Both the position numbers and the translations under genes were made by a program. A DNA stretch of 57,971 bases, counting the filler, from Porpidia crustulata (lineage: Eukaryota), in the NCBI GenBank assembly GCA_964255105.1. It is 5 parts of 5 records of this genome, joined end to end, with 100 filler letters (N's around TTAATTAATTAA, not from the genome) between each part and the next. Parts side by side here need not be neighbours in the genome. Positions count along the whole stretch, not along the records: positions 1 to 11,525 come from CAXUWE010000645.1; 4 more parts are not named here. One strand, 5' to 3'. A model generated the notes under the pieces. That model did not search any database, was not told the DNA's origin, and saw only the letters and a program-made list of their open reading frames with translations. Below, in pieces: positions 1-11,525 of the stretch (position 1 is the stretch's first letter; each line of letters opens with the position of its first letter).

Positions 1-516
1 GGGCGGGATTCAGAATATTATGAAGATGGCACGGATGTTCATCTAGGGTAGGATTATTGACGAGAGAGTAATGATAAGTCAAGGACCAAAAGGGTATGAT
101 TGAACCCCTCCTCTGCACGAGCGCCGTAAGTATTAATTGCTAACAAATCTAATGACTAGAAGAAAAGCCATTGGATTAAATGCGTCATTCCATCCCATTG
201 TTAATGGTCATGCTACAAATACTTGAGCAAGATGCCGTCGAAATATAAACTCCGGAAGAGGCGTACAGGTATGGGTACTATGGAGGATGTTCGTCTAATG
301 TACAAACATCTGGGATTGACAGCGAGATTTCAATCATCACTTTCAAATCCGGGCATGGTTTGCTGGTGCTGAACAAGTATTATGTGTCATTATTAAATAA
401 GCCACCCAATAAGCTGGTCATGGTATAGTACATTGATAAAAGCAGATCTATGTCCTGGGTATATCACAACTTTTCCATACATAAAATTACTAGACGAATG
501 CAAGAACTTTGAACCT

Positions 517-1837
517 TTAGTGCGCCATCCCGTTCCGTCTCCCAATTTTCCGAGCAGTGCCAATCGTTGCACGTTTTACTTCACTGGCGACGTCCCCGCT
601 CTCTTCGCCACTGGTCGATTTGTCCTCAACATCGCCATCTTCGGCATCAGAAGTTCCTAGCGCTCGATTTTTGACATTGACGTATGCCCAGAGTGGCAGA
701 CGGAATAACACCGTGTCTCGAAAGGTAGGCTTCATTACTTCTTCCGGATCTAAGAGATATTCTCCTTTTGTCCCATCATCGCCTTCCTGCTCAAGGAAAA
801 CGTTTCCCACGGAATCTACGATCAAAACCTTGCCGTTCTCCGCTTGTACTTTTTTCTTTGCACCTTGAGGACCAGCATCAGATTCAGATTCAAGGGCCAT
901 CCTAGTCCCTCTCTGACGTACCCCCCGAGTGATCTTTACATCCTTCTCTTTTTTGCTCTCCCTATCTTGTTGGCGCTTCTGCCTACGATTAAGCGAAAGG
1001 CCCACGTCTTCTTGGCTGGCAGCGGCAGACGTTGCAACCTCGGCCGCGTCAACACCCGGGATGCCTCTACCTAATGATTCGTCACCCCAAGCAGTTCGTC
1101 TCGCATGTCGAATATACCGCTCCACAAATTCTCTTTGCCTCATCCAGCTCACGTACATTGCACCATAGTGGGCCAAGCCTCCACCAAGTACAAAAAGGCC
1201 AATAAGCACTGATCCAAGTCCTGGACGGAACCGCGCATAGTAGTAACCAGTGCCCTTCCACTTGGGGAAGCCGTTGCTCAAGAAATGATCATATCTCTCC
1301 CGGCCCGATCCTTTCAGAATGGTTGTGATCACGGCTAATCGTGCAAATCTGTCACTAGCTTTCTTTATAGCATCACGAATATCTGTATCCGATGGAGGTT
1401 TGCTGACATGGACACCGGGATTCACTTTCCGTGAATCAAGCTTAGACTTCGAGGTTGGCTTCGCCCTTGACGCAATCAAAGATTGCTTGGCTTTATCAGG
1501 GTGTATGACACGGGATCGCTTCCTGTAGGCTCTGGCAATGTCATCTTGCGATGCGCTGGGCTTCACGCCCAAGAATTCTAATGAATGATCGTTGCTTAGC
1601 ATATCTGAGCTTAGCTCCGCGTTCAAGGATATTTACTTACCGTAAAAGGTCACACCAGGGCCTTCTGAAGCTTCTATCTCATCTCGCAATCGGAATATTT
1701 CATGATCTATGTAAGAGTAATCAGGAGAAGCCGCGACTGGCTCACAAGATCGGCGTTCGCTCACCCTCCTTTCCCCAGCCTACTACGACGGCTAACAACG
1801 ATCCCCAAAGCAACAACGAAAAGAGTGAGTATCTCAT
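517..1837 (-). CDS. ER membrane DnaJ (J-domain) protein, Erj5-like; 3 exons (1837-1765, 1706-1641, 1577-517)
   Basis: Signal peptide MRYSLFSLLLWGSLLAVVVG, then WGKEDHEIFRLRDE..TFYEFLGV across two GT-AG introns; HPD motif (VIHPDK); ERYDHFLSNGFPKWKGTGYYY followed by a TM helix. Confidence 0.88.
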
Positions 1838-2407
1838 AATAATTGAACAACATGCATGTACACCTAACCGCAACACTCCCGAGAGCTGGTGGGTATTTGG
1901 AGTTAAACGAAAACTTGCGCTCTCGAGGTTGCGGTTCACCAGGATGTTTTTAAGTTTAGGTGCGTAAGATATAAAATCGCACAAACGTGGACCAATCGGA
2001 GGAAACGCAGCGAACCCGAGGGCGGTGAGTGAAAAAGAGAAGTACGGCCTGCTTGAATATTGTTTATATCTATGTATCAATTATCGCAGGTCGAGGAATT
2101 GAGGCTTCCACTTCCGCTTGTCAAGGTTGGAAGCCGCAACCGGATGGCGTGCCTGATTGCAAGTCCAGATCGTGTAGGACCCTGTGTGGTAGGTAACTCG
2201 CAGAAAATTATTTATTAGGCTCCAAATTTGTTGAAAAAGTCACTTAGACGCGCAAGTCTTAACGGCAAAAACACAGACGAAACAGGCTCCAGTTTTGCTC
2301 AAATGATCGTCGAACACGAGTCCAGCTTGACTCCGAAAATTTAGCACACACTCCTACCCGTACACTCTCATAAGCCTTCGAAATTTCAGACCTTGTGCCC
2401 TACAATA

Positions 2408-2938
2408 ATGGCACGTATTCAGATTCCCCTGGACGCTTTGACATCCCGGCTCAACCTCGGGTCTCGTTTCGAAAGCGTCCGTTCTCAGTCCGTTGGAACC
2501 AGATTCGCCAACCTAAAGCCAATCTCCGAATTTCTAGACTTCAAACGCCTTTCCAAGCCTGCCGATTTTGGGGATGTTCAAAGTAGAATCAACTACAATC
2601 TCGGCTACTTCTCAAGCAATTACGCTGCAGTTGCAATCATGCTAGGAATCTACAGTCTACTGACAAATCTCACATTACTGTTCGACATTATCTTCGTTGG
2701 AGTTGGATGGTTTGGGATCAAGAAGCTGAATGGTCGAGATCTTGAGCTTGGCTTTGGGCGTGCGACCACCTCACAGCTTTACACTGGTCTGCTAGTAATA
2801 GCCGTGCCTCTTTTTATTTGGGCCTCACCGATCTCAACTGCACTTTGGCTAGTCGGAGCCAACGGCGTAAGCATCCTTGGTCACGCATCATTTATGGACA
2901 AACCAATCGATACAGCTTTTTCAGAGGAGGCGGTCTAG
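2408..2938 (+). CDS. YIP3: Prenylated Rab acceptor 1 (PRA1 family), Yip3; 176 aa, intronless
   Basis: LKPISEFLDFKRLSKP..SRINYNLGYFSSNY and ILGHASF motifs plus hydrophobic hairpins typical of PRA1. Confidence 0.93.
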   Translation: MARIQIPLDALTSRLNLGSRFESVRSQSVGTRFANLKPISEFLDFKRLSKPADFGDVQSRINYNLGYFSSNYAAVAIMLGIYSLLTNLTLLFDIIFVGVGWFGIKKLNGRDLELGFGRATTSQLYTGLLVIAVPLFIWASPISTALWLVGANGVSILGHASFMDKPIDTAFSEEAV

Positions 2939-2987
2939 GTGGTCGGCCGCGAACTCCAAAAGATATGCCCTCATGGGGAAGACCATC
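2917..2987 (+). other. Putative -1 ribosomal frameshift signal: slippery T_TTT_TCA, 6-nt spacer, H-type pseudoknot
   Basis: Heptamer 2917-2923 is in the YIP3 frame. Stem 1 is GCGGTC(2930-35)/GGCCGC(2945-50). Stem 2 is GGTGGTC(2938-44)/GACCATC(2981-87). Confidence 0.7.
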
Positions 2988-4245
2988 CGGGGCTCGAGAC
3001 GGAAAGAAGAGGAAGGGAGAATTAAGGCATACACGGCAAAGGGAGGAAGATCGACGTTTTGAAGAAATAGACAGTGATGACTTAGATGGACATAGCGTTA
3101 ATTGGAATGGGACATACTCTAGCGATGAACTGCATTTTACCGACATTGACTTAGGACTGGGAATTCGGCGTCGACAGCGACGTGATCACAATCATGTCTA
3201 TAGCTCCGGAGCTTCGGAAGTAGATGAATATGACCCAGAAGAGATAGTTGGGGGTACAATGCAGCTAGCTCTGAGAGACAAGGAAGAATTACTTGTGCAG
3301 AGGGCTCTGGATCGTATACGCCGTGCTCAGATGCTTGGGAGGACCAATGTCAAGTTAACCCAGCCTGAAATTGATGCCCTAGAACGCAGGAAGCGGAAAG
3401 ACCGAGCGAAGTCCAGAGGCACAGAAACGACATCAAAGGGCGTCGAACGACGGCGAAGTACCGAATACTCCAGTGCTACCCTCAAGCACGACAACTCGGC
3501 GAATAGAAGATCGAAAAATCTCATCCCGAGGTACACTAAGAGTGGCTCGTCGAGCCCTGCTCGAGCAACACCTCCACGCTTGGTCTCACCTGGCCCAGAC
3601 AGCACTCCGGCCTTCACGCCCTTTGCTTATTACCCACAGTCAGGCGCCGCTCTACAAAGCCGATCGTCGCGCTCTACGTCGGGATCAACAAGCTCTCATA
3701 GCCCTCGGCAATTGAATCTTCCTTTGTTGCCAAACCGACCGCATACTCAGATGAGACGTTATGTCTCGGTACCAGAATCCTTACAACCAGAGTCGTTGTC
3801 TCGTTCGCCGCCTCCGCCGCGGCGTTTACCTGATGATCCCAACTGGGCTCCACGACCTCGGTCAGCTTCTTCGAGTCAGCCCCATCCTACTGAGCCGTCT
3901 CAGCATCAAGCGCACTCTCCGCCACTCCCACAAGTGCCCATTCAATACAGCCAAGGCCGAAGACATGTTTCAGGTCCGTCGGATATCCAGTACTCCAATG
4001 CGCGAAGACTTCCTCTCCCACAAATGCCTTATGCCACCCCCTCCGATCCCTCGAGTTTACAACGAGAATACTTAGACGAGGCACCAGGCGAGGCTAGTCT
4101 TAGTGAAGACGACTCCGACTATGACAATGACACAGAAAATTCTGGTGTTAGGGTTGATGTTATCCCCTTCGTGGGGGAAGGCTATACTGTGGATGTGAGC
4201 TCTGGAACTCTTTCCGGGCGGAGGCAAAGACAAAGTTTACGATGA
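2920..4245 (+). CDS. Ser/Pro/Arg-rich ORF in the -1 frame overlapping the YIP3 3' end; probable trans-frame extension of Yip3 (alternative own ATG at 2965)
   Basis: -1 frame is open from 2746 to 4245. The first ATG lies only 26 nt after the YIP3 stop. Contains a helical block MQLALRDKEELLVQRALDRIRRAQMLG. Confidence 0.8.
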   Translation, partial: FRGGGLGGRPRTPKDMPSWGRPSGARDGKKRKGELRHTRQREEDRRFEEIDSDDLDGHSVNWNGTYSSDELHFTDIDLGLGIRRRQRRDHNHVYSSGASEVDEYDPEEIVGGTMQLALRDKEELLVQRALDRIRRAQMLGRTNVKLTQPEIDALERRKRKDRAKSRGTETTSKGVERRRSTEYSSATLKHDNSANRRSKNLIPRYTKSGSSSPARATPPRLVSPGPDSTPAFTPFAYYPQSGAALQSRSSRSTSGSTSSHSPRQLNLPLLPNRPHTQMRRYVSVPESLQPESLSRSPPPPRRLPDDPNWAPRPRSASSSQPHPTEPSQHQAHSPPLPQVPIQYSQGRRHVSGPSDIQYSNARRLPLPQMPYATPSDPSSLQREYLDEAPGEASLSEDDSDYDNDTENSGVRVDVIPFVGEGYTVDVSSGTLSGRRQRQSLR

Positions 4246-4429
4246 GTCATAAGCGTCTTGAGGTCTTTAGCTGTTACAAGTGCATTGGGCAGGCTATTAG
4301 ACCAGGAGCTATGGTCGTGCAGGGGCGAACTGCTTCTCATGTTTGAATACTAGATACCAAATCAATACCGGTCCCTAGTGCCCCAAGGGCGCCATGAGCG
4401 TAAGAATAATAACTACATGCTGTTCCACG

Positions 4430-5556
4430 TCATTGCGCCAGTATATTCTCCTTGAACTCTTCCTGCATGGCTTGGCCAACTCCAATACACTGCAGGTAGC
4501 CTTGCAAGCCGCCATATGTCTTGTCGATGTGCTCATGCATTTCTACTACAAAGGTCGGTGGACAGCCAGCAAACTCCTCGCCAAGGCCAACCTCTCTGAT
4601 CTCCACCATCCTTGCCTGCTTTTCCGGAAATAAGTAACGTTCGCTAGCAACGTAATCCTCCGTGATACATTGAAGCGGGATTTCTAAGAGAAGCAACGCG
4701 AGCAATACGACGAGGCCTGTCCGGTCTTTCCCTTGGGTACAATGAATCATAACAGGATAATTTGCCGAGTCAGCTAGGACTTCGAAGACCTGGCGAATCT
4801 CCGACTTGCTATGGTCGAGAGAGTCTTTACCGAGGCCGATGAGTCCGCGAGGTTGCATGACTTCTGTGCCGAGGATGCTGATGGCTTCGGTCCTGTAGCC
4901 AAGAATTATGAGGCTTATCGATCTTCTGGATCATGGTCAGGAAGGTTTGGCAAACATTGATCGACGGAACAGACATCAGGCTAGACCATCTAAGCTTACT
5001 CAACAACGCTCTTTCAAAAGCGCCACCATTAAGGTTGATCTCTTGGTACTGAATTCCAGGAATCCTCGGCGGCTCAGCAGCACTACTTTTAGATTGCGAT
5101 GCTGTTGCTGAGCTTGCCGTAGAAGTATCACGTTTCTTGGCTTGCTTTACGTGTTCAGTCCTTGAAAGATGGTCAGAAGACATTGGCATACCAGGGTAAT
5201 CAGACAGCTACAGACTTGGATCTCAAATCAATGATGGTAGCGATACCGAATGTATCTGTCAAACGCCTTTGATCTTGAGGGACTCCGTCATCGGGCTGTA
5301 TGTTGCAAATCAGCCCCGGTTTACGGGATTGGTACGACTCAACATGCTCTTGCACTTCTGAAAATCCGCCCTTCTCTCAATTCGCTGCCAAATCTCAGCC
5401 TCGCCTTTACAAATGATCTGTCCCCGCGAAGGCTTCCACAGGCGCGACCCACTGGCAGCCACACAGGCGGTTCACGGTCTGTCCAACATCACGGAAATTT
5501 AAAATGGACGGGAAGGGGCTTTCAGGGACGAGTCCACCGTTAGGCTTCCTGGACAT
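4430..5556 (-). CDS. Tyrosine/lipid phosphatase (Y_phosphatase3 / IphP-like), multi-exon
   Basis: N-terminal ILNFRDVG motif, catalytic P-loop HCTQGKDRTG and DY..SE motif; GT-AG introns link the ORF pieces. Confidence 0.88.
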
Positions 5557-5975
5557 CTCGAGCGAATGGGTGTTTAGACTCGATAGGCGTAATGCAAATA
5601 AGGACTAGGTGGCCATAGCAGCCAAAGTCAGTATAGCATTGACGAGCCAGCCCATCTAAACTCGAATTGTTCTCTACATCAGCGATATATTGTAATCGTG
5701 GACACCTACCTCCAGTAGTAATGATCGGAAGGCATTGGTCGAGGTAGTTAGCGCCTAGAAAGTGGATCTTGGTCGCCCGTCAAGCTTGGTAGCCTCCTAC
5801 GTCATCGGAGACGACTTGACAGCAACTTACTGAATATGTCAGTCTTCGGACTGCAACGCAAATCATCCATAGCGTTGTCCACCAAAAACTCGTACCTGCT
5901 CTGCTTACTCCTCTGATTGCGAAGTATCGCTGTGCTACGACAAGATTATCTTGTTTCATAACAGCTGTTGGCAGC

Positions 5976-8900
5976 ATGGCCGGCGCCAAATCGCAGAAAC
6001 TTGAGGATCAAGGTGAGCCGGTGCATGGAATCGTGGCAGAAATCTCTACTTACGCTCATACACCAAAGCTGCAAAGTCTGCCATGTACGACGTAAAGCCA
6101 AATGGAGGAAACAAGCACAAAAGTAGTTATCCCTTGGATGACGACAATAAACTGTCCTCCGCAGGTATAAACTCGATTACCTTCGTAATGAGAATTCAGC
6201 ATCTTACATTCTTACAGGAGCTGCTGCCTCGCTTAAGTATATCGACCCGCGTGACCTTCCATCGTTTCCTTCCGCGGGCTTCTCCAATAAAGATTCTTGG
6301 GCAGGCGCAGCCGCAAGCCTGGCAAATGCCAACCAAAAAGCCTTCGAATATTGGAAACCTGACCCCTCGGTATCTGCAAACAAAGCTGCGCTGCTGGCAA
6401 AGGACTACAAAGCTGCGCCACGATGGCATCCAGAAATGAGTTCGGCGGGCTCCAAGGCAGCGCTTCTGGCTGCGAAGGACGGAGGGCACGTCGATGTGTG
6501 GAGACCTGAACCAACCAACGCAGGTAGCTCCGCAGCTGGGCAGGCCATGCGCATGAAAGGATTAAGCCCTCAGGTATACCAAGGGGTTACTATCGACGAG
6601 AGCAAGAGAGCCTTACTCGCTGCAACGGGTGCAATGTCTGGAAGCAGAAAGCGCGCTGGCTCCATGCCAATCGTCAACCCTAGGTATCCAGGCTCCGCTA
6701 ATGCCGCAACCAATGCTCTCAGCGCCGCGACTTTGGCGAACAAACCTACAAACACTATACAAGCACACACGCGGGCGTCGACACCAATTGATGGAGCCCA
6801 GATTCATAATGCAGCAGTGACCAAATTATCCCGCGAGATGTATACATCGCATCCTCCTGTAGCACCAGAGATTGAAGAGAAGAATCGACAGGCCGGCCTG
6901 CGAGCTGCTGCAATCTCCATGGCGAAGCAAATGTATGATGTACAGGAAAAAGCAATAGAAGCGGCTTCTGCAGATGTGGAAAATGCTGAAAGCCGCTATG
7001 CTGCCACAAGTGTGCATAATCGCCAGGTATCTACAGTCATGCCCGCCGGGGCGCAACCGTCGGTCACCCAGTATACCAATTTACAGGGAGCTGCGCAGAA
7101 GCTGGCAGCAGAGCGCCTGGCCAAGCTTCACGACGAACACGCCGCATATCGCAACTACTATGGAGCAGCCCCTCCACCACAGTCTAGGTTATCAATCCGA
7201 GGACGCACTCGGAGACGAGCTTCCAGCGATGGACAAATCGACGATTCTGACGCTGCACGTTCGAAACAGATTCGGTCTGAGATGTCTTTGTTTAACGACA
7301 AGCTAGCACAAGTCGACGCCAAGAAGCGGCAGCAAGATCGAGACTCACTAATGGCAGCTGCGCAGAGAAATGTTAAGGCAAGTATGCACGGTATGGACGA
7401 AAAGGTCTTCAATGAGACTGGTAAAGCTTCACCAGCAATGATTGAGGAACGGGAGGCCAAAGCGAGCGCTCGTGCGAAGGCAGACAGTGAAGCCCGCATG
7501 GTCAACCATGGAAGGGTTGATATTGGTGGTGGGAAGTACCTCGATCAGTCTGAGATTGACGCCATTGCCGTGCGGCGAGTTCAGCCCACCCTTGACGAAA
7601 TCACGGAAAAGGTCCAGAAACATAGAGCCAGGGATGAGCAACTCAGGCAAGCACAGCTGGAGCGTGAACGGCTCGCGACAGAAAAATTTCAGGACCAGAA
7701 GGAGCGTGACCTCAGGACCAAGGAGGAATGGAAAAAATTTAGAGGTACTTTCCAGTGATGTTTCGATATTTTCGTAGCTGTACTGATTGCAAACAGAGGA
7801 CGAGAAGTTAGAAATCAAGGCCAAGAAAGAAGAAAAAAAGGCGAAGAAGGCTGAGCAGAAGCGGCTCCGAGAGGGAGAAAAGCGTAGGGGCAAAGAAATT
7901 CCTACGACCTTGACAAGTGCGACTCGAAACTCTGAAGAAAGGCCAGTGACCGCGACAGAGCCTCCAATCCTTGATCCGATACCAAATGTTGGGCCATTAT
8001 CCACAGAAGCACCAGGTATTGCAACGGCAGCCAATAAGGAAATCTCTCTAGTCAACCTACCCCTGAAACTAGCACCCAAGGGCGAGTCTGTTTCCGCCCG
8101 AGTGACAGGCTTTTCATCATTGCCTTCTGGGGAAATATCTCCAGTCGAGCTAGCTCCAATCACAAATTCGATACCTAGAGGGACGACAACTCCACCAATA
8201 ATAGATCCAGATCATGCCGAACATGTGGCTGCTCGCGTACTATCGGCACCAATTGTTAATGAAGAGCTTCCACCAATTACAGACATTAGCCCTTCCTTGA
8301 TGCCTGTCCAGACGACCGCTATGCCGCTATCTATTCCTAAGTCCTCGAGTATTTCTACGCCGGAGGAGCCCACTGAGCTATCTATCACAACGGCATCCAC
8401 CGCATTAACTAAGCCGATTGAGCATACCGACTCCGTTTCATCCCGAACTGATCCTGTTGCAACCACACAAACCACCATTACTGGCCCCGCAAAAGAACCA
8501 AAAAGCGAGTCCAAAGTTTCCTCCTGGCTAAAATCGAAATTCTCCTCTCGAACCAATAAACCCACCAAGGAGGTAGCTCCCGAAAGTAGCAGTAAAGAGA
8601 AAGCCTTTGTCGGCGGTGCAACTTTGACCGACCCAAACGTTGCCAGCCAAAATAGCCTCGGACCCACTAAGATCTCATCCGTGCGTGAGGCCGCGATGGC
8701 CGGCCGCCAACCTGCCGCTGTCCTTGATGGTCCAGTCGATGACCACGAGCTCTATGCCGCTTCCGAGCCACGGAGCCAAGCCCGACGTCGCGATCACCCC
8801 TCCTCACCATACATCAGCAGCATTTCAAGCGACGAGGACACGAGAGGTCGATCGACCATGAGAAGGGAAGAGACGGAGAGCACCCAGGGTGAGGAGTTTG

Positions 8901-9016
8901 AGGAGGCGCTAGATCATTTCGACAAAGAGGCGTTAGCGCCCCCGGCTACACTAGGGACGATTGAGCGAGTGGGTGGAAGTCCGGTTAGGGATTCGAAGTT
9001 TCAGGAGATCTTGTAG
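5976..9016 (+). CDS. Eisosome assembly protein (Eis1-like), about 4 exons
   Basis: Ala-rich SAGxAALLA repeats, LRAAAISMAKQMY, LMAAAQRNVKASMHGMDEKVF, G(R)VDIGGGKYLDQSEIDAIA..VQPTLDEI, C-terminal RDSKFQEIL. Confidence 0.78.
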
Positions 9017-9641
9017 CCATTGAGCTCGGATGTGGATCGCAAGCAAGGGGGATTCTACGCTTTGTGTGGTGACGCTTTCAAGATTATGGCAGGCTCACTT
9101 AAGAGGTCGAGATCAACAGAGTAATTCTATGTTTTATATAAACACGCTGTCCTTCAGAAAGCCGGGGCTATTGAGGCAATGTTGTTGTAATCCGTGGGCA
9201 TTATGTCTGCTTAGGAATTGGTATGACTTATTCGCCAGAGACAGCACCCTCTACTCGCTTCTCCGTAATATGATTGCCAGTAACTACCAGAAAGAAGACC
9301 CGCCTTGGGTGGTGTTCTGTCTAATGCGATGTTCAAAAATCAATATGCTAAACACGAAGTACTAATAGTTTATTACAACCTTGGGTCATGATGTTCGAGA
9401 GAGGGTTGCTAATGACAGGAAACGATTACAATGTTTAGTTGCTCATGATGATATAGCCTGGGCCGAATCGCTCATGTTCCGCGATCGCGGATTGTCCAAA
9501 TGCTACGCAAAAGTAAGGAGCTCCCCAGTCTTACAATTGTTAACACCAACTCGCGATGCTATGCTTGAGCTCCTGTGCTGAATGCACGCTGCATTTGTAC
9601 GAGCCGTAAGCTGCTTGATCGGTATATCAACGAATCCACTC

Positions 9642-10889
9642 TCAAAAATTCTGTGCGGCAATCGGTCTAACAAGACCATCTCCAACATCCACACCGGTCA
9701 CAGCAGACTCCGTGTATGCAATATCGCCATGGGCGGGATGCGCACCGTTGACTGCTGATCGTTCATGCTCACGGCCATTAGTATATCTGTAGCTAGAGCC
9801 ATTTCGTTGAAGCAGTTCATGGCCAACACCAAGTTTCTGGTTTCCTAGCTCTCCTTGCCCGTAATTGCTTTTGAATTGTTTGTCTTTCGCGGCAGGGAAT
9901 AGGTCAACAGAAAAGCTCAGGACGTAGAATGTGAAGACCAGCGAGATTATCCACTCTACATCCAACGTTAGTTTCGTTGCCAAGCGCAACTCGAGCATAT
10001 GGGAAGTTACCAAAAACAGCACCAATATTCTTTCTGGAAGTGAAGGTCATGGCAACAAATACAACCGCGAGTATTACTTATAAATCTTTTAGCAATAGAA
10101 AATTCGCCGAGTTAGTTTTGAGAAACTAACGTTCCACAATAATGAAGGCAAGTTTTATCCAGAACGAGGCCCTCAGAACGCGGTGTTGACGATACTGTAC
10201 CCCAAGGCGTTGATATTCGGCGCACACGAAGATAGCACTAATGACGTAGCCGGCACTAAGATGGTGTTAGCAGCTTCCCCATATTTAAGTATCAGTTAGA
10301 GACAAACATGAACAGTAAAAGAAATCCGTCATGCAATTTCGGATGGCGTAAGGTGTCGAAAATCGAAAGCAAGATAAGTCCAGCGGTGCCAGCGAGTGCA
10401 AAGACGACTCGAAACAGAAATTAGTACAGTCTCCATATCGTGATGCTCGCGACGATGCATACTGGAAAGCGCCGAAAGTGACTTGTCCACAACACCTGTG
10501 TTTTTGGCCAAGCGACCTGCATGTCGCAGATACCTTTCGGCTGCAAATGACAAGTCCAGAAAGATAGTGGTCACACAGCAACCAGCAACAAAGAGAGGCT
10601 TTAATCCCTCGGCACCAACATCTGATATGTAGCTAGAAATCACTCATCACGAGGCACCCCTTGGAAAAGATATGAGGGGACTTACGCGATCTTTTGGTTA
10701 GCATCCATCGAGGCGTAGTGCGGGTGCCCTTCAAGTTCCCATACAATGAACATTGTGAGTAGCATACCTATATCTATTAGTTTACGGAGGCTTCTGTTCT
10801 ACAGTCTCACGGAGTTTTGACCAACCAAGCCATGTGAAGGCACTAATAAGCGGTAGCAGCCCGAAGGCTAAATATTTGATAGTAAACAT
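9642..10889 (-). CDS. SFK1: Frag1/DRAM/Sfk1-family multi-pass plasma membrane protein, 7 exons
   Basis: Spliced product contains LPLISAFTWLGMLL, YISDVGAEGLKPLF, LILLSIFDTLRHPKLHDGF, SFWIKLAF and FEWIISLVFTFY. Confidence 0.85.
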
Positions 10890-11129
10890 ATCAAATTCAG
10901 AAAGGGCGTTTTGCCAGCCAAAAAAATTAGAAGAGCAAATAGGATAATTAGGTTGCTGGAGTGGGAGAGAAGGGTGCGCTGCAGTTCCTATCGGAATGTG
11001 GCACACGAGAGGTTTGTTGAAAGAATGTAATAGTGGCAGACACAGCGATGAGGACGCAAGGACTTCTTGGAGCATACAGATCGCAAAATCAATATGTTTA
11101 TTTATTCGTCAAGAAATTGGGTAGACCCA

Positions 11130-11137
11130 TGACGTCA
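11130..11137. promoter_or_regulatory. Perfect CRE/ATF palindrome TGACGTCA about 240 bp upstream of the SFK1-like start
   Basis: Exact 8-mer only; function untested. Confidence 0.3.
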
Positions 11138-11525
11138 GTGATGCCGGCAGTTCGAATGACGGCTGGATGTCCTTACTGAAGCGAGCGCTGAATAGCAACC
11201 CCTGATGATGCCGCCACCAGGTACCCGGCTGACCCGTAAACCCCTTAAAATGAGGTTTACTTCTAGGGTTATAAACCTATTCCTCACCAAATCGCTTTCC
11301 CACCATTTCAAATATGGAGCAATTATATATTATCTATCATTCTACATCCTTCATCATCATAGCTCTAGTATCGTCATCGATCAAGAGAAATAGAAAAAGA
11401 GCCATGAGCAAATAGCGGAACAACAGCAACAGCAACAGCAAATACGAGAGCGGAATAGAAACAGCAGAAGCAAAGTGTTACGATCAGACCTTCCCCAACA
11501 TCCCCAGCAGCCCACCGGATCAAGG

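Follow-up and report, generated by a model that had tools for sequence, protein, structure and literature searches.

The window considered here is a stretch of 57,971 nucleotides (nt) from Porpidia crustulata (GenBank assembly GCA_964255105.1), comprising five parts of five records joined end to end with filler letters between them. Its first part (positions 1 to 11,525, from CAXUWE010000645.1) contains an open reading frame (ORF) for a YIP3 protein, the 3′ end of which is overlapped by a second, longer ORF in the −1 frame (Table 1). The YIP3 ORF matches the Pfam PRA1 family (PF03208) over residues 32-172 with an E value of 1.2e-38, and the −1 frame is open, stop to stop, from 2746 to 4245, i.e. 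over 499 codons, a length which would be very improbable in random sequence. The first ATG of the −1 ORF is at 2965, leaving a gap of 26 nt from the YIP3 stop. A preliminary description of this DNA, made from the sequence alone, had given this layout, including the ATG and the gap, and all of its coordinates are confirmed; it had also noted a heptamer, T_TTT_TCA, close to the YIP3 stop, which direct reading places where described, and had proposed that a programmed −1 ribosomal frameshift there makes a long YIP3 isoform. The product of such a slip would have 612 residues, either 171 + 441 in the case of slippage in the ribosomal P-site only, with the predicted junction ..DTAFFRGGG.., or 172 + 440 in the case of tandem slippage, with the predicted junction ..DTAFSRGGG..; the approximately 612-residue product and DTAF-FRGGG junction previously given are correct for the P-site model.

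The evidence that both frames are used comes principally from related loci. A scan of metagenome contigs with the 3′ ORF gave 51 loci, 49 of which, as judged by tblastn, contain both ORFs, and two of which (L022 and L046) are truncated at contig ends. Together with the window these make 50 sequences, which reduce to 27 distinct segments of 126 nt and to 26 distinct segments of 105 nt (alignment A2). The upstream ORFs of the 49 loci are 65-94% identical to the YIP3 ORF over the aligned part, which is mostly all 176 codons, but starts from codon 4 in six loci and, in two, is shortened by the start of the contig. Without exception, the 49 loci have their second ORF in the −1 frame, and the overlap of the two ORFs is the same. 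A profile of third-position conservation, made with 37 distinct segments of 850 nt representing 49 of the 50 sequences (L031 being too short), has values for the PRA1 frame of 0.41-0.76 up to 2905, and of 0.98-0.99 at 2921-2950; past about 2996, the variable position is the third base of the −1 frame, a switch that is a signature of protein coding in that frame. On this comparison of sequences, both ORFs are under purifying selection, each in its own frame.

The part of the −1 opening that lies upstream of the heptamer in the window (2746-2916, 57 codons) is of a different character. The variable positions there follow the PRA1 frame, and these 57 codons are not coding; the opening is incidental, since other sequences have stops in this region, such that their −1 frame opens 1-5 codons before the heptamer. 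It does so by one codon in 13 of the 50 sequences, by two codons in two and by five codons in eight (i.e. by five or fewer in 23/50). This upstream opening is bounded in the window by a TGA that is also present, apparently by descent, in 20 of the 49 loci. In the 13 sequences with a one-codon opening, the fixed position of the zero-frame stop means that the change of frame must occur within approximately eight codons, which contain the T5 run.

The heptamer itself is TTTTTCC in 47 of the 50 sequences, TTTTTCA in two (the window and L048) and TTTTTCT in one (L049), so that, as far as the window and the 49 loci go, only its seventh base is free to vary. The zero-frame stop, which is TAG in 46 and TAA in four sequences, is at a constant position four codons past the serine codon of the heptamer. 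Two nucleotides after the heptamer begins a 10-base-pair stem (stem 1), interrupted by a bulge of 3 nt (2951-2953) and capped by a loop of 9 nt (2936-2944), within which lies the zero-frame TAG. Stem 1 is the minimum-energy fold of 2924-2960 (−14.2 kcal/mol) and is the same as the RNAalifold consensus of the 26 distinct sequences, in all of which (26/26) it is 100% paired. The few changes within it are one compensatory replacement of G-C by A-U (pair 2932-2948, in L033) and two of U·G by U-A, and the bulge is kept in length while varying in sequence (GAA, GAT, GAG or GCG in alignment A2). The programmed −1 frameshift proposed in the preliminary description is thus supported both by the conserved cassette and by the −1 frame of the second ORF in 49/49 loci, and the comparison of T_TTT_TCN sites, −1 overlap and synonymous sites that it recommended bears it out: TTTTTCN is present in 50/50 sequences, the overlap in 49/49 loci, and synonymous sites are near-fixed to about 2985.

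Table 1. Features of the YIP3 locus (positions are those of the window)
Feature	Position	Strand	Details
Zero-frame ORF, YIP3/PRA1 family (short isoform)	2408..2938	+	ATG 2408; TAG 2936-2938; 176 codons
−1-frame coding part of the long isoform (C-terminal extension)	2920..4245	+	441 codons + TGA
Slippery heptamer T_TTT_TCA	2917..2923	+	Zero-frame codons Phe171 and Ser172; GCT TTT TCA at 2915-2923
Two-nt spacer	2924..2925	+	GA (GG in the Podospora-like group); alignment A2
Stem 1	2926..2957	+	2926-2935 pairs with 2945-2950 and 2954-2957; 10 base pairs
Downstream block conserved at the RNA level	2966..2987	+	Small hairpin CCCY NNN GGGG (2968-2978) and GACCAUC (2981-2987)
Predicted helix-turn-helix, the only confidently folded part of the extension	3241..3417	+	AlphaFold2 on alignment A1

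The preliminary description had pointed to a precedent in Podospora anserina, which proves to be real. In their main text, Malagnac et al. (2013, PLoS One, PMC3777964) describe a programmed −1 frameshift at U_UUU_UCC, at codon 170 of PaYIP3 (Pa_1_8470), a gene with a YIP3-like 5′ ORF and a longer −1-frame 3′ ORF that is specific to Pezizomycotina. A pseudoknot was placed 2 nt downstream of the site, with a GC-based stem 1 containing a conserved 3-nt bulge; the 2-nt spacing was regarded as unusual, the usual spacer being given as 5-9 nt. Twelve complementary DNAs (cDNAs) were found to be unspliced and unedited in the coding region, with an intron in the 5′ untranslated region (UTR) as the only difference from the gene, and the long form was detected in vivo, by western blot and microscopy, as a green fluorescent protein (GFP) fusion of 88 kDa, which matches the size predicted from both ORFs. 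The efficiency measured in a yeast reporter was 1%, falling to 0.3% with a slippery site out of frame. According to the same account, no function was found for the extension, and the long form, on its own, failed to complement the deletion and is absent from the fruiting-body centrum. The site and the extension were reported in all the Pezizomycotina examined except Ascosphaera apis and Arthrobotrys oligospora, with +1-frame variants in Capnodiales and Ophiostomatales; no +1-frame variant is present among our 49 loci, which says little because the search was seeded from lichen-type 3′ ORFs. The YIP3 case is listed in a 2016 review (Atkins et al., PMC5009743), and no later experimental follow-up beyond these two publications was found in the literature searched.

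The resemblance between the window and PaYIP3 is close. Both have an orthologous PRA1/YIP3 5′ ORF followed by a long −1-frame 3′ ORF without a known domain; both have, at about codon 170, a U_UUU_UCN site that is separated by 2 nt from a GC-based stem 1 in which there is a 3-nt bulge; and in both the zero-frame stop lies in the hairpin loop, which, by eye, is identical to that of the 59-nt oligonucleotide used in the Podospora work. The differences are that the seventh base of the heptamer is A in the window (as in L048; L049 has T) rather than C, that the spacer is GA rather than GG and the bulge GAA rather than GAG, and that the stretch after stem 1 differs; the sole change within stem 1, again by eye, is at pair 2931-2949, which is C-G in the window and U-A in Podospora, so that both sides have changed. 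Podospora is a Sordariomycete, whereas the nearest named relatives of the window are Lecanoromycetes; the main text of the 2013 paper does not mention lichens or Lecanoromycetes. Since the nearest named relatives are in Pezizomycotina, in which conservation has been published, the case is an already known one. The suggestion that the window holds a lineage variant, rather than something wholly new, consequently stands: it has the same cassette, with A as the seventh base, and the feature, as presented in the main text of that paper, is conserved across Pezizomycotina.

Other ways in which the 3′ ORF might come to be expressed have to be considered. The gap of 26 nt between the YIP3 stop and ATG 2965, a start with an equivalent in 26 of the 50 sequences, would suit translation of the 3′ ORF alone, be it from a separate transcript, by reinitiation or by leaky scanning, such that no fusion is made, and the finding that 105 of 120 listed relatives lack a PRA1 domain, i.e. 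are modelled as a separate protein, is in line with this. The other 24 sequences, however, do not have this ATG, their first in-frame ATG being 29-164 codons in, past conserved residues, and conservation at both the protein and nucleotide levels begins exactly at the heptamer, not at the ATG, with FFRGGGLGGRPR invariant or nearly so. There is, further, no space for a promoter, and the 88-kDa Podospora fusion has the size of both ORFs. An independent start for the 3′ ORF is thus considered very unlikely.

A second possibility concerns the T5 run. If RNA polymerase were to slip on it, adding one U in some transcripts, the long protein would be made from edited messenger RNA (mRNA), because one extra base in the run brings the 3′ ORF into frame. 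A run of five is short for transcriptional slippage, and the strictly conserved structure 2 nt past the run resembles a ribosomal stimulator. The Podospora results, as reported in the main text of PMC3777964, bear on this in both directions: the corrected allele used there has one base inserted just upstream of the run, and a variant making up a few per cent of transcripts could go unseen among twelve cDNAs, but the fall of the yeast reporter from 1% to 0.3% with the site out of frame argues for a frame-dependent, and hence translational, event. Polymerase slippage appears to be as improbable as an independent start.

Thirdly, the frames might be joined by a splice, or the frame break might reflect an assembly error or a pseudogene. 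Among the 120 listed relatives, 15 are fused models of PRA1 plus extension, from which it follows that automatic annotators have proposed introns at this locus. Six of these were inspected (P0017, P0056, P0069, P0071, P0106 and P0112); each joins the frames at a place of its own, deleting conserved PRA1 or cassette residues, and the joins are apparently made through invented introns. In the window itself, none of the 229 phase-correct GT..AG pairs that could join the frames combines a donor consensus with a branch site and a YAG acceptor, consistent with the earlier remark that no obvious intron joins them, and the Podospora cDNAs, according to the same source, are unspliced there. As regards error, the Logan contigs of the sole public run holding the stretch have no differences from the window over 2300-4400, a comparison that is not independent, given that the run is probably the source of the window itself. 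The frame break is present in 49/49 loci, by which an assembly indel, named in the preliminary description as one way in which its proposal might fail, is ruled out, and both ORFs are under selection in their own frames, as would not be expected of a pseudogene. This third alternative is the least probable of all.

With these alternatives weighed, it is highly probable that 2408-4245 is one gene, an orthologue of PaYIP3 with a programmed −1 frameshift, in a Lecanoromycetes-like (i.e. lichen-forming) ascomycete. In the proposed mechanism, most ribosomes would translate the 176-codon PRA1/YIP3 ORF and stop at TAG 2936, while a minority would slip back by one base on T_TTT_TCA, helped by the GC-rich bulged stem, probably forming part of a pseudoknot, that starts 2 nt downstream. 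The slipped ribosomes would then read the −1 frame to 4245, giving the long isoform.

Several observations weigh against this interpretation. The heptamer is not a canonical X_XXY_YYZ, as the preliminary description had recognised, its positions 4-6 being TTC, and the spacer is 2 nt instead of the canonical 5-9 nt. The fold of 2917-3000 taken alone is unexceptional (z = −0.76; 41 of 200 shuffled sequences are as stable or better), the percentage of pairing in the stem is reached by 290 of 500 shuffles and the single compensatory pair by 20 of 500, and the RNAalifold covariation term of +0.09 lends no support to the structure beyond its invariance; the covariation statistics are, however, uninformative because the cassette is nearly invariant. 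UCA is probably decoded by a different serine transfer RNA (tRNA) from that for UCC and, if so, the tandem re-pairing set out in the Podospora paper fits the window less well; single P-site tRNA slippage, which the preliminary description had also favoured, is the mechanism to which the authors of that paper lean in their Discussion. We infer a single unspliced mRNA over both ORFs, and the actual production of the long protein, from the experiments in Podospora; no RNA run covering 2300-4400 is listed among the public runs, the single listed run being DNA-like. Finally, the Podospora protein is not among the listed matches to the 3′ ORF, and no direct comparison of the two was made.

The conservation extends beyond stem 1, to a block (2966-2987) for which third-position conservation is 0.98 at 2966-2980 and in which, among 35 distinct complete 3′ ORFs, the invariant Pro18, Gly21, Arg22 and Pro23 of the extension are each encoded by one and the same codon in 34-35. 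When the invariant, degenerate amino-acid columns of these 35 ORFs are compared, 12 of 13 columns in codons 1-23 (2917-2985) have one codon that accounts for 94% or more of the sequences, only Pro14 (63%) falling below this, whereas the 16 such columns in codons 50-327 all have a most frequent codon that reaches only 29-66%. The near fixation of synonymous sites in codons 1-23 implies constraint at the RNA level, beginning with the heptamer and lasting until about 2985, well beyond both the zero-frame stop and stem 1, and, as the constrained stretch runs approximately 45 nt beyond that stop, dual coding cannot explain it.

How this block might interact with stem 1 can be considered in terms of two candidate second stems, both nearly invariant. 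One pairs loop bases 2938-2941 with 2966-2969 (96.2% paired); the other, of 7 base pairs, pairs loop bases 2938-2944 with GACCAUC (98.4% paired), of which the nearly invariant part is GACCA (2981-2985), complementary to 2940-2944. The two are mutually exclusive, and the pairing statistics, coming from nearly invariant columns, favour neither; for a nested alternative, pairing within its own helix is 88%, and covariation does not separate it from the second stems. The duplex energies calculated for the window are −8.8 kcal/mol for the longer and −2.0 kcal/mol for the shorter stem. By eye, the 59-nt Podospora reporter oligonucleotide ends at the equivalent of about 2974, i.e. before the invariant part of the block at 2975-2985, and the shorter stem fits within that published fragment. 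It is possible, though on balance doubtful, that the frameshift stimulator extends beyond what was described, and tested, in 2013; if the block does belong to the signal, this could explain the mere 1% obtained with the reporter and the failure to drive the site of the coronavirus infectious bronchitis virus (IBV). Two loci, L047 and L051, have a 6-nt insertion between stem 1 and the block (alignment A2, columns 56-61) and, in the small CCCC..GGGG hairpin, a loop of greater length; the block GGGGAAGACCACC is retained in both.

The IBV 1a/1b signal, comprising U_UUA_AAC and an H-type pseudoknot, is a comparison drawn in the main text of PMC3777964. It differs from the YIP3 signal in having a canonical X_XXY_YYZ heptamer, a 6-nt spacer and an efficiency of 10-15% in yeast, and the Podospora structure was unable to replace the IBV pseudoknot. 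Also named there are the mammalian PEG10/Edr and Ma3, which are cellular genes with a protein extended by −1 frameshifting; the Edr pseudoknot likewise has a 3-nt bulge in stem 1. By contrast with YIP3, in which there is no signature of a retroelement, the heptamer is non-canonical and the spacer is of 2 nt, these genes are retroelement-derived and, according to that paper, employ tandem slippage.

With regard to the extension itself, 177 relatives of the 3′ ORF product were found at E ≤ 1e-3 among 8000 candidates scored, the closest named ones being from lichen-forming Lecanoromycetes, e.g. Schaereria dolodes (47% identity), and the best unnamed one being 72% identical. A profile built from ten diverse 3′ ORFs matched 389 proteins at E ≤ 1e-5, with named matches from Leotiomycetes (Cadophora, Botrytis, Sclerotinia and others), Penicillium and Lecanoromycetes; no Pfam family was found on the 3′ ORF at E ≤ 0.1. 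By these matches, the 3′ ORF product appears to be a member of the Pezizomycotina-specific extension family. UniRef gives the name ‘Prenylated Rab acceptor 1’ to several of the relatives made up of only the 3′ ORF, despite their having no PRA1 domain. The AlphaFold2 model of 452 residues has a mean predicted local distance difference test score (pLDDT) of 49.8, with blocks in residues 131-170 at 90-95; helices are predicted at residues 119-149 and 159-177, forming a hairpin that spans the most conserved protein block, LALRDKEE..RIRRAQ..ALE. As modelled, most of the extension is disordered, the exception being this conserved helical hairpin. In one related locus, L012, the 3′ ORF stops at a TAG after 334 codons, while those of its relatives L007-L009 run for 425 codons to a TGA; its 126-nt cassette segment is identical to theirs, and the short ORF may be a truncated allele or an assembly error.

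On the upstream side, the YIP3 gene is flanked by a divergent ORF with a DnaJ domain (520-1632, − strand; PF00226, E 1.8e-08), with approximately 775 nt between the two ORFs. On the downstream side is a convergent ORF of the tyrosine-phosphatase family (4433-4930, − strand; PF13350, E 3.5e-27), which is probably one exon of a larger gene. The stops of YIP3 and the phosphatase (4245 and 4430) are only about 185 nt apart, so the 3′ UTRs must be short or overlap.

The feature in the window is therefore one that is already published, i.e. the Pezizomycotina YIP3 −1 frameshift, here with a trivial variant at the seventh base of the heptamer. The present work makes one modest addition, namely that the near-fixed synonymous sites extend to about 2985, further than the stretch equivalent to the 59 nt that were assayed in yeast. 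A practical lesson for annotation is that the public gene models of the YIP3 locus are inconsistent. The authors of PMC3777964 suggest, in its main text, that YIP3 would be the first case of a cellular gene without a retroviral origin whose protein is lengthened by −1 frameshifting, so that each clear orthologue helps to define the signal. Almost every base of the cassette is preserved, both in lichen-type fungi and in relatives that are far more distant.

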